Of a DNA stretch of 64,000 nt, positions 14,399 through 35,157 are shown piece after piece. The stretch is from a virus. Position 1 is the first letter of the stretch; each line of letters begins with the position of its first letter. The notes below the pieces were generated by a model. It did no database searches. It was not told the origin of the DNA and worked only from the letters and a program-made list of their open reading frames with translations. The stretch lies in IMG/VR virus record IMGVR_UViG_3300021962_000054, positions 31,796 through 95,795 of that record; one strand, 5' to 3'. Position numbers and translations under genes: made by a program.

Positions 14399-14474
14399 GC
14401 CCCGGTAGCTCAGTTGGTAGAGCAGCGGATTAGTAACCCGCAGGTCGGAAGTTCAACCCTTCTCTGGGGCACCA
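14399..14474 (+). tRNA. tRNA-Thr(AGT)
   Basis: Cloverleaf; anticodon loop TT-AGT-AA; G1-C72, C2-G71; CCA. Confidence 0.85.
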
Positions 14475-14481
14475 TTTTTTT

Positions 14482-15225
14482 ATGAAGTATACTTTAGGAC
14501 CTATAGACAGACAAAAAGAATTAGATTTTCATCTTATTCCTTTTAGGAATAAAGGCTTGACTGTGCCAGGCATTTTAGGTGGATACACTAAGTTGGGTGT
14601 ATACTTTTCTGGTGGGTTAGATTCTACGATTACATTATGTTTGATACTTGATGAATTGCGTAAATCAAGAAAAATAGAAGAAGTTTCAGTAACATGTTTT
14701 ACTGTAGTCAAAACATCTGGCTCTACTTATTATGCTAGTAGGATGCTAGAAAAGGTCAGAAAAGTATTTGATTGTGATATAAATCATATCACTAACTTAG
14801 ATAATCCTGATATTGATAAAACACCGACACCCTTGTCGTTTTCAACGATAGCAGAGTTGGTTGGTCAATATAAAGATACATTATTTTTTACAGGACTGAT
14901 GTCTTATCCTGATAGCAAAGAAAAAGATTTTGTATATAAAGAGTCGATGAGCAATATTCCTAATATTGGATTGCGGAATTACAAGGTGGTACAACCTTTG
15001 ACTCATTTATATAAATATCATGTAGTTGATTTGTACTATCAAATGAATCTTGATAGCCTCATACCTTACACTCATACATGTACAAAACAATCCATAGGTA
15101 CTTGTAATATGTGTACGGGATGCGAAGAAAGACAGTGGGCGTTTGATGTTCTCAGTAAAACTGACCCTGAACCTATAATGCCTGACATCGAGGATCTGTC
15201 AAATAACGGCAGTTGGAAATTTTAG
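14482..15225 (+). CDS. QueC-like PP-loop ATPase
   Basis: FSGGLDST PP-loop; THTC-x7-CNMCTGC Zn motif. Confidence 0.75.
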   Translation: MKYTLGPIDRQKELDFHLIPFRNKGLTVPGILGGYTKLGVYFSGGLDSTITLCLILDELRKSRKIEEVSVTCFTVVKTSGSTYYASRMLEKVRKVFDCDINHITNLDNPDIDKTPTPLSFSTIAELVGQYKDTLFFTGLMSYPDSKEKDFVYKESMSNIPNIGLRNYKVVQPLTHLYKYHVVDLYYQMNLDSLIPYTHTCTKQSIGTCNMCTGCEERQWAFDVLSKTDPEPIMPDIEDLSNNGSWKF

Positions 15226-15457: not shown

Positions 15458-15531
15458 TGAGGCGTCGTCTAACGGCAGGACAGCAGGTTTTGATCCTGCT
15501 TATCGTGGTTCGAATCCATGCGCCTCAGCCA
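15458..15531 (+). tRNA. tRNA-Gln(TTG)
   Basis: T1-A72, TT-TTG-AT, G73, CCA. Confidence 0.95.
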
Positions 15532-15811
15532 GGCTTGATGACCTGCAGGCATGTCTGACGGGTTCATCCTATCAGTGTGAGGGCTTTTCCGTTTCGGTAG
15601 CACTGATTGATATATGAGGTAGAACGGAATGTAAACCATATGTTGTAACCATATGGTTAAGAACAAGCCTTAGATGGTAGTTACTGGTATAATGCGAGGT
15701 TGTCTGTTAGTAGCGTGAATACAACAAATGGAAACAGAATAGTCTATGTTGCGTGGGGGCATAGATGAAACTAAACTGAATGGTTGATAGCCGTGCGGTT
15801 AGCCCACGCCA
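15532..15811 (+). ncRNA. unassigned structured RNA B with two potential pseudoknots, ending in CCA
   Basis: GGCTTG/CAAGCC closing stem; loop TTCCGTT pairs with AACGGAA; loop GCGTGGG pairs with CCCACGC. Confidence 0.6.
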
Positions 15812-15870
15812 TATTAGTTGTAATGTAATTATATTATGTTATAATTAGTATCTAACAACAGGAGATATTT

Positions 15871-16359
15871 GTGACTATACTGAATCTTATTGATCCAAAG
15901 TTGTTAGATGCTGAAGTTGAAGATCCACGTTATGTGAATAGTCCTTTTCGCCATCTAAAACAACTAAGTGCCAAACAAAAAGGCAAACGCTATGAACTGA
16001 TTACTGAATGCGTAGTCCGTAAATTAGGACATACTGTCAGTAAGCCAACTGATACTGATCATGATCGTATCGTGGATGGTTTGAAAGTCGAGATCAAAGG
16101 TAGCACTCTAAACAAGAATACAGATCATTTCTCATTCTTGCAGATACGACCCGATCAAGATTATGATAAAATTTATTTCACTATGTTCTATCCCACTGAA
16201 TTAGTCATCATGGAGATGACTAAATCAAAGGTTCTTGAAAACATTGCTAATGGCAATTTCAAGAAGCAACATGGTGGCAACAAGGCTGATAGCGGTACAT
16301 ATCTTTATTATGGTAATCGTGAGAGCCTTGTAAATATAGGAGCGACATTTGTACAATGA
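15871..16359 (+). CDS. PD-(D/E)XK nuclease, restriction-endonuclease-like
   Basis: KG..YE ... DHDRIVDGLKVEIKGS motif; coupled to a methyltransferase. Confidence 0.65.
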   Translation: MTILNLIDPKLLDAEVEDPRYVNSPFRHLKQLSAKQKGKRYELITECVVRKLGHTVSKPTDTDHDRIVDGLKVEIKGSTLNKNTDHFSFLQIRPDQDYDKIYFTMFYPTELVIMEMTKSKVLENIANGNFKKQHGGNKADSGTYLYYGNRESLVNIGATFVQ

Positions 16360-17288
16360 GTGAACCCGCACTAGATCCCAATATCACAACTCAGGAGTTG
16401 ATGGCGATAGATTATCGTTACAACTATACTGAGAAAGAACTATTGGCTGATTGGGTAAAACTCAAAAATACAACAGAGTTCAAGAAGGGCAGTCAATTCA
16501 AGCCCGGCATGAAACTCTGTCAACACTTCTTTCCTAACTTTTGGAATATCAAAAGTAGTGGCGGTGTGTCATTTGCTGATTGCTGGCAAGACCATGCTCT
16601 AATGGATAAAGTACGATTGTGGGGCAAACAAGGCATGAGTCAGTTGTGGCTCTCTTGGGTGCGCCGTGCCGTGTTCATGGCTGGTGGACTACCTAACAGT
16701 AGTTTCTATCGCCCGCACTTTTCAAGACAAGTCATATTGAATACTGGTAAGGATGAAGGCACATTGTTTGATCCTTGCGCGGGTTGGGGCGGTCGTATGT
16801 TAGGCACTGTTAGTGCTGGCTGGCATTATATTGCTTGCGAGCCAAACGTCGAGACATATAACAATCTCAACATTCTAATTGATTTTCTTGGTATACGTGA
16901 TAGTGTTACATTATACAATATACCAGCAGAGACGTTTGACTACAAGAATCATAGTAAGGTAGATGTCGTATTGACAAGTCCACCTTACTTCAATCTTGAG
17001 GTTTATACTACTGATAGCAATCAAAGTTATCATAAGCATAATACATTTGATATATGGGTAACCAATTGGTTAGAACCATTGATCAATAATTGTGTCGATA
17101 TGCTCAAAGATGATGGACTATCAGTATGGAATGTCATGAATTTCAACAATTGTCATCTGGCAAGTAGTGTCATTGACATCCATACAAAGTTGAATTATAG
17201 TTGTAAGTACACATTAGGTTTTCAGAGTCCTATCGCAAACATTAGAACTGTGAAAAATAAAGACCTAACATATGTATTTGCTAAATAA
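16356..17288 (+). CDS. amino-DNA methyltransferase (N4-C/N6-A type)
   Basis: FDPCAGWGG motif I and TSPPY motif IV. Confidence 0.88.
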   Translation: MSEPALDPNITTQELMAIDYRYNYTEKELLADWVKLKNTTEFKKGSQFKPGMKLCQHFFPNFWNIKSSGGVSFADCWQDHALMDKVRLWGKQGMSQLWLSWVRRAVFMAGGLPNSSFYRPHFSRQVILNTGKDEGTLFDPCAGWGGRMLGTVSAGWHYIACEPNVETYNNLNILIDFLGIRDSVTLYNIPAETFDYKNHSKVDVVLTSPPYFNLEVYTTDSNQSYHKHNTFDIWVTNWLEPLINNCVDMLKDDGLSVWNVMNFNNCHLASSVIDIHTKLNYSCKYTLGFQSPIANIRTVKNKDLTYVFAK

Positions 17289-17293
17289 GTTTT

Positions 17294-17450
17294 GTGAGAG
17301 TCCGAGAGCGAAGAGTCTAACCCACTACCTGGCTATCGAGGATGAACCGATCTGTTGTTAGTTCTGTTCCCGCTTATTAGGGTGTGCTGTGGTGGCACTG
17401 GAAACAACAGAGGGCGATCTGCCCTTCAACGGATATGATAGCACTCTCAC
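17294..17450 (+). ncRNA. unassigned structured RNA C
   Basis: GTGAGAGT/ACTCTCAC terminal stem, nested GCTATC/GATAGC, TCTGTTGTT/AACAACAGA, AGGGC/GCCCT; TAAATA 6 nt upstream. Confidence 0.6.
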
Positions 17451-31965: not shown

Positions 31966-34900
31966 ATGAGTCAATTATCTGGTAAGATTTGGAGCAGGCT
32001 AACAGTTAGTTTAGCTGTCGCTTCAATAGCTCTAGTGTCACTCATGGGTAATCCCGTGAATGCGCAAGAGACGGCTGCCAGTGCTGCAGGTGTTGTTCAA
32101 TCTGAACAGGGTGCAGCTAGCGGCCTATCAGTTGAAGTGCTACACGTTCCATCAGGAACAGTCAGCAAATCAACTACTGATGCAAACGGTAGATATGTTC
32201 TACGCGGTTTGCGTGTAGGTGGTCCTTATAAGGTCACTGTCAAAGGTGAAGGGTACAAAACTGTAGTATTAGAAAATCAGTTTTTAGCCCTCGGAGATAA
32301 CGGTAACTTGAACCTCGTTACAGAATCAAGTGATCTAGCAGAAGTAGTAGTGTTAGCCGGTCGTGCTGATCTAGTATTTGATAGTTCACGCACTGGTACA
32401 GGTACTACAGTTAGCAACGAACAGATCGTAGCACTCCCAACAATCAGTCGTAATATTCAGGATCTCGTAAGAACAGATCCTCGTATCGCTCAGACTGATA
32501 AAGAGCGTGGTGAAATTTCAGCAGGTGGACAAAACACTCGCTTCAACAACATTCGTATTGACGGTGTCAGCACCAACGATGCGTTTGGTCTTGAAGCAAA
32601 CAATCTACCAACTGATCGTCAACCAATTCCGTTGGATGCAATCGAATCAATCAATATCGCATTGACAGATTTCGACGTTGCTCGTTCGTCATTCACTGGC
32701 GCAAGCATCGACGCAATCACTAAGTCAGGTACAAACAAGTGGAGGGGAACTTCATACTTCCTCACACGCGATGCTGACTGGGTCGGAAAGCGCAATGGTC
32801 AAAAGTTCAACGGTTTCGATAAAGAAGAAACAGTTGGCTTGACTATCGGCGGTCCAATCATTGAAGACAAGTTGTTCGTCTTTGCTTCTTATGAGAAGTT
32901 TGAACGCGCAGCATTGGCTCCAACATTTGGTCCAACTGGTTCTGATAGCGCACAGATCGTAACAGGTATTTCACAAGCACAACTTGATGAAGCCGCAGCA
33001 ATCGCTAAAGATGTATGGGGTTTCGACGCTGGTTCATTCAATCCTCCCGGTGCTCTAAACACTGAGATTGAAGATATCATGGTCAAGTTTGACTGGAACA
33101 TCAATGACAGTCATCGTGCTGCTCTACGTGTCAATCGCACAGAGCAAAGCGATCCATACTTACGTAATATCGGACCACGTGATCTTTCATTGAGTGGTTA
33201 CTGGCACATCAATAACAAGAAGTTTGAAAGTGCGGTTGCTCATTTGTATAGCAACTGGACAGACAATCTTTCAACTGAGATGTCAGTCAGTGTCGCCAAT
33301 CAAAGTTCACTTTGGGATATCGGCGATCCTCGTCCAACAGTTCGCATCTGCTTGAACAGTTCATCCTGTTCTGGTGCTGATAGCATTTGGTTGGGTAGCG
33401 AGAGATTCCGTCATGTGAACATTCTTGAAACTGAAACATTGAACGCATTCGCAGCAGCAACTTATGTTGTTGGTGATCATGCTATCAAGTTCGGTGCTGA
33501 ATACGAAACAAGAGATATCTTCAATCTCTTCGGACGTGATCAGTTTGGTTACTATGAGTTCTATGGCTTGAATAACTTCCGTTCAGGTACACCAGCAGTT
33601 TACAACCTTTTCTATCCAGTCAATGGTGATGTAAACAGCCGTGCTGCTGCTTGGACATTAGAGAATGCTGCCGTGTTCTTACAGGATACTTGGACAATCA
33701 GCCCAACGTTGAATGTCACAGCAGGTGTTCGTGTTGATATGCCAATCGTGGGAGATACTCCTCCATACAATGCTGTTGCCAGTGACTTCTTTGGTCTACG
33801 CAACGACAGCACTCCAGATGGTAACTATCTCATTCAACCACGTGTTGGATTCAACTGGCAACCAGAATGGTCTGATCGTAAGACACAGGTTCGTGGTGGC
33901 GTTGGCTTGTTCCAAGGTATCGCCGCTAACGTGTGGTTGAGCAATCCATTCAGCAACAATAACGTGACTCAGGGAGCAATCTTTGATAATCGTGCTGCTC
34001 AGAATGGCATCGTGTTCAGTCCAGATCCAAACAATCAGCCAGGAGTTCGTCCACCACCAGGACTTGGTGGTAACGTTGACTTCTTGAGTCCAGACCTACA
34101 ACTCCCAGCAGCATATAAAGTTTCTTTCGCTGTTGATCATGAGTTGCCATGGTACGGATTGGTTGCAAGTTTTGAGACTGTTCTAACTGAAGTCGATGAA
34201 GGCATTCGCTATGTGAAGCCAAACTTAGGCGCACCAACAGGAGTTGCTCCAGATGGTCGTCCATTGTATTGGTCAACTGTGAATCCTGCTACCTTCACTG
34301 GTTCAAGTTCACAGCGTACAGCCAACACAAATCGTGACTTTGGTGTAGATTCAACGATTGCTCTACCAACATCGAAAGGTGATGGTAAGCAGTTCACTGT
34401 TTCATTACAAGGTCCTCAGAATGAGAACTGGTACTGGAACGTTGGATACACCTACACTGAAGCAACTGAAGTCAATACATTGACATCTTCACAAGCCGCA
34501 TCAAATTGGAACAACGCAGTTCGTGTTGATACCAACGCCGATGTTGCCGAGAAGTCAGTGTATGCCATCAAAGATCGTTTCACGGCAACTGTAAGTTATC
34601 GTAAGAAGTTCTTTGCTGACTTAGTAAGCTCAGTTGGTGTGTTCTATGAAGGTCGCATTGGTCGCCCATACACTTTCACTTTCGTCAATGACGCAAACGG
34701 CGATGGTCGTGTAAACGATCCATTCTTTGTGCCAAACAGAGGTGATGTTGTATTCAAGGGCGGTGCTGCTATGGAGCAAGCATTCTTTGATTATCTTGCT
34801 TCAAACGGTGAACTCGCTAAGTATCAAGGTGGTATTGCTGAAGTAAACAACAACAATGCTCCTTGGGTTCATAACGTTGACATTCGCCTCTCACAAGAAT

Positions 34901-35157
34901 TGCCAGTCTTTGGTGATGTGAAGGGTGAAGTATGGCTCGACATCATGAACGTTGGCAACATGATCAATAAGGATTGGGGTGTGATTGAAGAAGTCGGATT
35001 CCCAGGTGCCTTTGGTGTTGCTCGTTTCGCTGGTGTTGACGCTTCAGGAAAGTATGTCTACGATTTCCGTGCTTCGGATCTACGTGACTTGACTCTCCGC
35101 GACAACCGTGGTGAATCACGCTGGGCGATGCAGCTCGGTGTCAAGTTCAAGTTCTAA
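31966..35157 (+). CDS. TonB-dependent receptor (Oar-like, N-terminal carboxypeptidase-regulatory-like domain)
   Basis: Signal peptide, TDANGRY..GLRVGGPY, plug motif IDGV...DAIESI, amphipathic beta strands, terminal Phe. Confidence 0.93.
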   Translation: MSQLSGKIWSRLTVSLAVASIALVSLMGNPVNAQETAASAAGVVQSEQGAASGLSVEVLHVPSGTVSKSTTDANGRYVLRGLRVGGPYKVTVKGEGYKTVVLENQFLALGDNGNLNLVTESSDLAEVVVLAGRADLVFDSSRTGTGTTVSNEQIVALPTISRNIQDLVRTDPRIAQTDKERGEISAGGQNTRFNNIRIDGVSTNDAFGLEANNLPTDRQPIPLDAIESINIALTDFDVARSSFTGASIDAITKSGTNKWRGTSYFLTRDADWVGKRNGQKFNGFDKEETVGLTIGGPIIEDKLFVFASYEKFERAALAPTFGPTGSDSAQIVTGISQAQLDEAAAIAKDVWGFDAGSFNPPGALNTEIEDIMVKFDWNINDSHRAALRVNRTEQSDPYLRNIGPRDLSLSGYWHINNKKFESAVAHLYSNWTDNLSTEMSVSVANQSSLWDIGDPRPTVRICLNSSSCSGADSIWLGSERFRHVNILETETLNAFAAATYVVGDHAIKFGAEYETRDIFNLFGRDQFGYYEFYGLNNFRSGTPAVYNLFYPVNGDVNSRAAAWTLENAAVFLQDTWTISPTLNVTAGVRVDMPIVGDTPPYNAVASDFFGLRNDSTPDGNYLIQPRVGFNWQPEWSDRKTQVRGGVGLFQGIAANVWLSNPFSNNNVTQGAIFDNRAAQNGIVFSPDPNNQPGVRPPPGLGGNVDFLSPDLQLPAAYKVSFAVDHELPWYGLVASFETVLTEVDEGIRYVKPNLGAPTGVAPDGRPLYWSTVNPATFTGSSSQRTANTNRDFGVDSTIALPTSKGDGKQFTVSLQGPQNENWYWNVGYTYTEATEVNTLTSSQAASNWNNAVRVDTNADVAEKSVYAIKDRFTATVSYRKKFFADLVSSVGVFYEGRIGRPYTFTFVNDANGDGRVNDPFFVPNRGDVVFKGGAAMEQAFFDYLASNGELAKYQGGIAEVNNNNAPWVHNVDIRLSQELPVFGDVKGEVWLDIMNVGNMINKDWGVIEEVGFPGAFGVARFAGVDASGKYVYDFRASDLRDLTLRDNRGESRWAMQLGVKFKF

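Follow-up and report, generated by a model that had tools for sequence, protein, structure and literature searches.

A conserved, doubly pseudoknotted non-coding RNA in the tRNA clusters of large uncultured water phages

RESULTS

The locus downstream of tRNA-Gln

The window analyzed here is a 64,000-nt stretch of a 95.8-kb IMG/VR phage fragment (IMGVR_UViG_3300021962_000054) with a completeness rating of 27%. ARAGORN assigned 26 tRNA genes to the window. The 280 nt that follow tRNA-Gln contain no credible open reading frame (ORF); the small ORFs inside them (AUG-UAA; 11–14-codon frame) are not conserved among homologues, and ARAGORN found neither a tRNA nor a tmRNA at this site. The features of the locus, in window coordinates, are the following:

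15458..15531, + strand: tRNA-Gln(UUG) with encoded CCA at 15529–15531, adjoining the element upstream (ARAGORN; Rfam tRNA model, 56 bits)
15532..15536, + strand: unpaired 5' linker GGCUU (alignments)
15537..15568, + strand: hairpin Pa, GAUGACCUGCAG ... CUGACGGGUUCAUC (covariation helix 1)
15571..15577, + strand: pseudoknot 1, 5' arm of stem S1, ATCAGTG (covariation helix 2)
15587..15593, + strand: pseudoknot 1, 5' arm of stem S2, TTCCGTT, inside the S1 loop (helix 3)
15601..15607, + strand: pseudoknot 1, 3' arm of stem S1, CACTGAT (covariation helix 2)
15623..15629, + strand: pseudoknot 1, 3' arm of stem S2, AACGGAA (covariation helix 3)
15634..15658, + strand: hairpin P4, first copy, AACCATATG/CATATGGTT (alignments; helix 4)
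15659..15680, + strand: conserved A-rich strand AAGAACAAGCCUUAGAUGGUAG, near-invariant in all homologues
15681..15742, + strand: linker restricted to the tRNA-Gln clade (89% mean identity, five long forms, alignment A6)
15743..15765, + strand: hairpin P4', second copy, TCTATGTT at 15743 and GGCATAGA at 15758 (motif positions; alignment)
15766..15799, + strand: linking strand of the second module, with UGAAACUAAA conserved (alignments)
15800..15810, + strand: conserved tail TAGCCCACGCC, invariant amid variable flanks
15818..15845, + strand: promoter-like site (TTGTAA, 16-nt spacer, TG-TATAAT) of a nuclease/methylase cassette, outside the RNA

In four related phages the tRNA array opens with a tRNA-Thr carrying the unusual anticodon AGU (14399–14474 in the window, 1242–1317 in locus L010, 3711–3786 in L141, and L018). 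Between this gene and tRNA-Glu, the window has a QueC-like gene of 247 aa (14482–15225), which is missing in L010, where the two tRNA genes are adjacent; with this protein as the query, zero related loci were retrieved. Downstream of the element, a 162-aa ORF overlaps that of a 310-aa N6/N4 DNA methylase (15871–17288), and the pair has its own promoter. The 162-aa product is similar to cyanophage proteins, among them one with a restriction endonuclease annotation. Since the cassette is absent from L010 and L141, it is an insertion whose position coincides exactly with the element's 3' end; its promoter-like site marks the point where homology to the relatives stops. A second conserved non-coding block, at 17294–17450, is 92% identical to a copy in L010 that lies approximately 60 nt past the element and before tRNA-Ala. 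At gathering thresholds, Rfam had no match to this block. Ten ORFs in the downstream tRNA-gene region were scanned against Pfam, and no RNA-processing partner emerged. At 31966–35157, the window encodes a 1063-aa outer-membrane protein resembling SusC/TonB-dependent receptors (CarboxypepD_reg, Plug and beta-barrel domains). Together with L141, a 5.9-kb contig binned with a Bacteroidota MAG, this protein hints at a Bacteroidota host for the phage.

Homologues and conservation

In blastn searches of cultured phages, tRNAs were the sole matches. A search with a phage-specific 847-aa protein led to the relative G001, whose element is 93% identical and lies directly 3' of its own tRNA-Gln. Homologues were further collected by pattern scans of IMG/VR and JGI metagenomes, and the fetched loci were then searched with covariance model R1. 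The collection comprises approximately 24 distinct homologues from contigs of IMG/VR and JGI and, in addition, L141, the one genuine case among 73 pattern matches in prokaryote genomes. Ten new viral loci returned by the final pattern were all false, and L095 and L113 (12–16 bits with R1) were discarded as chance matches in coding DNA that had been seeded by a 16-mer pattern. Each record holds one copy, including a 188-kb record rated 100% complete. The phages that carry the element are large and uncultured, come from estuaries and fresh water, and probably infect Bacteroidota.

The element or a close relative was present in contigs of four metatranscriptome libraries, each from a different study, and some of these contigs span both tRNA-Gln and the element. 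These contigs document presence only: DNA carry-over is possible, and transcript ends, strand and abundance are not readable from them. The neighboring QueC-like gene had no cover in the contigs of the RNA libraries, which is uninformative because relatives lack the gene and contigs cannot rank expression.

Between the window and G001, identity is 95.2% for the core of the element and 97.9% for the first 95 nt of its second domain, versus 84% for the Glu-Trp-Gln tRNA block and ~74% for approximately 8 kb of coding DNA. The comparison shows stronger purifying selection on the element than on the adjacent tRNAs, and places the element among the most conserved sequences of the phage genomes that carry it.

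Positions 15532–15811 (+ strand) were compared with the 4227 models of Rfam 15, which cover tmRNA, RNase P, SRP, 6S, YrlA, GOLLD/ROOL, wcaG, riboswitches and all self-cleaving ribozymes. No match was obtained at gathering thresholds, and at E ≤ 10 the long form of the window gave only three matches, all below 16.1 bits (E = 6–8). The short forms of L019 and L027 gave no Rfam match at E ≤ 5. An initial sequence-only reading of this DNA had proposed an undescribed phage RNA, and this proposal is borne out by the missing Rfam match, the strong covariation described below and a conservation exceeding that of the neighboring tRNAs. Elsewhere in L019 (2345–2391), inside another phage tRNA array, the COG2908 RNA motif of Rfam scored close to its threshold (54.8 bits; gathering 58.7).

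Two pseudoknots supported by covariation

Taken alone, the window sequence has a modest, mildly unusual structure signal: the z-score of its nested minimum free energy is −1.19, and it contains 19 complementary 6-mers versus 8.3 ± 3.5 in dinucleotide shuffles. Covariation was evaluated on alignment A5, a covariance-model alignment of 18 short-form homologues, for five helices, namely Pa, S1, S2, P4 and the pairing of the P4 loop with the 3' tail. In these helices, 98.2% of the cells are paired, and compensatory changes occur in 13 of the 37 pairs, with at least one in each helix. The covariation score was 0.259, versus 0.125 ± 0.011 for shuffled alignments (0 of 500 shuffles as high) and at most 0.061 after sliding the helix partners.

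Stem S1 (ATCAGTG/CACTGAT) has four compensatory pairs out of seven, as exemplified by TATAGTG/CACTATA in L121 and L117. Two were found in S2 (TTCCGTT/AACGGAA), a U-A to A-U change in four sequences and a C-G to U-A change in L117, and one in the pairing of loop GCGTGGG with tail CCCACGC (C-G to U-A in four short forms). Pa, with 98.6% of its positions paired, has two compensatory pairs; P4 has four in the short forms. Pa varies in length and is reduced to a 5-bp stem in L117 and L118. The order of helices is thus hairpin Pa, an H-type pseudoknot formed by the interleaved S1 and S2, and hairpin P4, with the 3' tail CCCACGC paired to the P4 loop GCGUGGG across an A-rich linking strand. Approximately 45 unpaired bases are invariant in the family. 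The folded strand is the + strand, the same as that of the tRNAs, because the frequent G-U pairs would turn into C-A mismatches if the opposite strand were read. We conclude that both pseudoknots are real.

Several other pairings were considered and rejected. Helices CCA:UGG, UCUU:AAGA, GGCU:AGCC and GAGG:CCUU displayed no two-sided change on A5, and their scores equaled those of the shuffles. A nested arrangement proposed by RNAalifold, with GUGU/ACGC and GGCU/AGCC replacing pseudoknot 2, was dismissed, as compensatory change is found only in the loop–tail pairing. An all-against-all column covariation scan was too noisy for use.

The motifs on which the sequence-only reading had built its model are all in place: GGCTTG (15532), CAAGCC (15664), ATCAGTG (15571), CACTGAT (15601), TTCCGTT (15587), AACGGAA (15623), GCGTGGG (15751), CCCACGC (15803) and the final CA (15810–11). 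Both of the pseudoknots that it had claimed show covariation in the 18 short forms. The stem GGCTTG/CAAGCC, by which it had closed the first domain, did not hold: it has 6 bp in the window only and 4 bp in L010, is mismatched in the short forms, and has lost its 3' arm in the L029 variant. The terminal CCA is likewise incidental, as most homologues have U after CCCACGC-C (CCU). A tRNA-like NCCA acceptor end was rejected on the same CCU endings and because the base before CC is paired and covarying.

Duplication and decay of the 3' module

The family usually occurs in a short form of about 160 nt, in which the A-rich strand AAGAACAAGCCUUAGAUGGUAG joins P4 to the 3' tail. The 280-nt two-domain form is confined to the clade of the window. 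L141 shows how the two forms are related. After its tRNA-Gln come a spacer of 7 nt, a full short form that includes the GCGUGGG loop and the tail CCCACGCC, a linker, a second hairpin with the same GCGUGGG loop and a second tail. From this intermediate with both copies, we conclude that the tRNA-Gln clade underwent a duplication of the 3' module, which consists of hairpin, A-rich linker and tail. Tail and loop of the first copy have been lost in the window, L010, L018 and L032: the GCGTGGG of the short forms and L141 has decayed to TTGTAAC in the window (UUGUAAC or similar in this group). The linker at 15681..15742, where L141 still carries the first tail CCCACGCC, holds a hairpin, TCTGTT (15703)/AACAGA (15733).

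Pseudoknot 2 of the window is supplied by the second copy (15743–15810). The P4' loop GCGTGGG (15751–15757) is its 5' arm, and CCCACGC (15803–15809) is both its 3' arm and the 3' boundary of the element. P4' has a compensatory G-C to A-U change in L141 and yielded a separate R1 match of 19 bits. Within the second linking strand, 15776–15797 forms a small lineage-specific hairpin, replaced by a different hairpin in L010, L141 and L029. In variant L029 and in contigs from two RNA libraries, most of the first copy is deleted. One working loop–tail pair has been kept throughout this turnover of modules, indicating that the pairing matters. The two domains of the sequence-only reading are therefore present in the window's clade, but domain 2 arose in this lineage alone, by duplication of the 3' pseudoknot module.

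A stand-alone miniature of the 3' module was observed in L119 (7179–7256, − strand) after an ORF. It consists of the hairpin GGCGUG/CACGCC, a downstream AGCCCAC paired with the hairpin loop GUGGGCU, and the linker UUGAAUGGU as in the element. The pseudoknot module may thus also exist on its own.

Placement in the tRNA arrays

The element usually sits exactly between the CCA of tRNA-Asn(GUU) and tRNA-Ala(UGC), with a U-rich spacer of 5–8 nt separating its tail from tRNA-Ala. In approximately 20 loci, behind tRNA-Asn or tRNA-Gln, it starts 0–2 nt past the encoded CCA. The conserved CUUG begins 1 nt past the CCA in most relatives, 2 nt in the window and 7 nt in L141, and the +1 base and spacing after the CCA vary (U, A, G or GG). 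The first paired base follows the upstream CCA by 4–5 nt, and the gaps between tRNAs in the window measure 6–9 nt. The spacing is thus close to that of ordinary tRNA gaps, and the element fills its slot much as a tRNA does. L116 has no adjoining tRNA; there, a promoter scoring 11/12 and a small ORF lie upstream of the element. The direct fusion to a tRNA CCA noted in the sequence-only reading is accordingly the usual arrangement, with exceptions in L141 (7-nt spacer) and L116 (no tRNA).

Wherever present, the upstream tRNA is specific for Asn or Gln (for example 15458–15531 in the window and 318–392 in L019). Both are tRNAs for amide amino acids and both end in CAGCCA; the restriction could reflect either function or recombination between similar 3' ends. 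Some short-form loci carry additional RNA of structured appearance between the element and tRNA-Ala (L015, 2976–3074, with two GCAA-tetraloop hairpins; L034, 3267–3688).

At the 3' end, the homologues have the GC-rich 7-bp helix GCGUGGG/CCCACGC followed by C and a U-run, and at most loci tRNA-Ala comes next. In L116 the element ends in CC + UUUUU directly before a sigma-70 promoter scoring 12/12. L010 and L141 have the same CC + UUUUU end, which in L010 is also followed by a promoter. The homology of G001 and L141 to the window ends right after CCCACGCC. Past the tail, these relatives continue with the U-run, approximately 60 nt, the homologue of window block 17294–17450 and tRNA-Ala; at the same point, the window instead has the acquired nuclease/methylase cassette with its own promoter and no U-run (CCAUAUUAG). 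A simple terminator scan made no call at the tail site, because the helix is a pseudoknot stem and not a hairpin. The U-run after the tail is not specific for termination, as the tRNAs of these arrays are ordinarily separated by U-rich spacers.

DISCUSSION

A proposed small RNA gene in a tRNA slot

The element is a genuine non-coding RNA, with strong conservation and two pseudoknots, kept in the tRNA clusters of large uncultured water phages. As to its role, our confidence is roughly even that it is a small non-coding RNA gene occupying a slot of a tRNA operon, whose stable product is released by tRNA-maturing nucleases, or ended by the pseudoknot and U-run, and acts in trans. The RNA would be transcribed together with the tRNAs and set free by the maturation enzymes of its neighbors, through 3' trimming of the tRNA before it and RNase P cleavage at the tRNA after it. 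At loci lacking a following tRNA, the GC-rich pseudoknot helix and the U-run may terminate the transcript. The knotted 3' end would block 3' exonucleases, allowing the RNA to accumulate as a stable species, and the ~45 invariant unpaired bases could provide a binding surface for a protein or another partner. With such a surface, the RNA would have a trans-acting role in infection, like the one presumed for T4 RNAC and RNAD.

This reading is supported by the homologues, their covariation and conservation, the slot-like placement, the single copy, the contigs from RNA libraries and the T4 precedent. L116, where the element follows a small ORF, adjoins no tRNA and ends in CC + UUUUU before the 12/12 promoter, supports its autonomy.

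Alternative readings

A tentative possibility is that the element belongs to a new class of active RNA devices, being either a self-cleaving ribozyme or a ligand- or tRNA-sensing switch that would gate the tRNA operon through the pseudoknot 2 helix and the U-run.

Considered by itself, a cis-acting switch or attenuator seems unlikely. Its core would sense a ligand, a protein or a tRNA, and the pseudoknot 2 helix with the U-run would gate transcription before tRNA-Ala and beyond. The size and complexity of the element and its many invariant unpaired bases are riboswitch-like, yet no riboswitch model of Rfam 15 matched. Every homologue has the 7-bp GC-rich helix followed by C and a U-rich run (UUUUU and a promoter in L116 and L010), and the next tRNA is tRNA-Ala at nearly all loci. 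A conserved alternative pairing is missing, however: the sole competitor for the tail (GGCU/AGCC and its neighbors) is mismatched and does not covary. Moreover, conservation extends over the full RNA and takes in what would be the expression platform, a part that is usually variable.

A ribozyme cleaving at its own 5' terminus, so as to free the 3' end of the upstream tRNA, functionally like the theta ribozymes, is in our view quite improbable. The sequence-only reading had suggested such a processor of tRNA trailers. In its favor are the start of the element 0–2 nt past an encoded CCA in approximately 20 loci, after tRNAs of two kinds (Asn and Gln), and the pseudoknots and invariant unpaired bases of its core. 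A published precedent also exists in ribozymes that adjoin the 3' ends of phage tRNAs (PMC10879173). The distance between CCA and core is nevertheless 1, 2 or 7 nt, the 7-nt spacer being that of L141, the +1 base varies along with the spacing (U, A, G, GG), and in L116 the element follows a protein gene instead of a tRNA. The tRNAs at these loci have an encoded CCA, unlike 95% of those associated with theta ribozymes (PMC10879173), and the remaining tRNAs of the array all manage without such an element. No known ribozyme model matched at E ≤ 10, and the helix order is unlike that of the HDV fold.

Very doubtful is a role as a binder or decoy for tRNA 3' ends, in which the invariant single-stranded UGGU of AAUGGUAG would pair with ACCA or GCCA tails to sequester or protect them. 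The T-box bulge and loop L15 of RNase P pair with tRNA tails in this manner, but neither a T-box nor an RNase P model of Rfam 15 matched the element. AAUGGUAG is invariant in all homologues and persists in the window's first module despite the decay of that module, and tRNA-Ala ends in ACCA, to which UGGU is complementary. Four complementary bases are, however, to be expected from chance alone; a CCA:UGG helix with the upstream tRNA does not covary, both sides being invariant; and the second modules of L010, L141 and L029 do not contain UGGU.

The probability that there is no functional RNA at all, only a chance-structured spacer or a DNA-level signal, is next to negligible: the unremarkable fold energy of the single sequence (z = −1.19) stands against compensatory changes in all five helices, strand-specific G-U pairs and an identity of 95–98% compared with ~74% for coding DNA.

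Significance and comparison with known systems

Small RNAs in phage tRNA clusters have been known since T4, and to our knowledge none has an assigned function. The present family has a defined, covariation-supported ~155-nt fold with two pseudoknots and ~45 invariant unpaired bases, and constraint of this kind usually marks ribozymes, riboswitches or RNA–protein machines. It illustrates RNA evolution by duplication and decay of a pseudoknot module and is suitable for an Rfam entry and for direct testing.

Intrinsic terminators and the protective 3' structures of small RNAs share with the element a GC-rich helix followed by C and a U-run. The helix of the element is the stem of the second pseudoknot, whereas intrinsic terminators have a simple hairpin, and at most loci a tRNA of the same operon follows the element within 5–8 nt, unlike the situation at an intrinsic terminator.

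HDV-like ribozymes form a nested double pseudoknot of the order P1-P2-P3-L3-P3'-P1'-P1.1-P4-J4/2(C)-P2' and are cleaved at the first base of P1. An HDV-like or theta fold was rejected for the element: its helix order differs, and its 3' end pairs with a hairpin loop and not with a segment adjacent to the 5' end. The HDV-family models of Rfam matched neither the window form nor the short forms of L019 and L027. Theta ribozymes are minimal HDV-like ribozymes that abut phage tRNA 3' ends (Kienbeck et al., 2024; PMC10879173). Their cleavage site lies within ±1 to 5 nt of the tRNA 3' end, 95% of the associated tRNAs have no encoded CCA, and the phage hosts are largely Bacteroidota (PMC10879173). 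The element resembles them in being doubly pseudoknotted and abutting a phage tRNA 3' end, and Bacteroidota hosts are also hinted at here. It differs in size (about 160–280 nt versus ~50–70 nt), in the encoded CCA of its tRNAs, mostly absent from theta-associated ones, and their variable spacing, and in its origin from aquatic instead of gut phages.

Species 1 and 2 of T4, RNAC (139 nt) and RNAD (119 nt), are similar in size to the element. Like the element, they are non-tRNA genes within a phage tRNA cluster, located on the tRNA strand 1–6 nt past the preceding RNA: rnaD begins 1 nt after tRNA-Arg, and rnaC 6 nt further on. Their roles are still unknown (PMC3014915, PMC9697503). The likeness drawn in the sequence-only reading thus stands for position, but it does not extend to sequence or structure: model R1, run against the T4 region with filters off, scored at most ~1 bit at rnaC and rnaD, which is the noise level. 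Whereas T4 rnaC has a tRNA-like T arm, the element consists of two pseudoknots and contains nothing tRNA-like.
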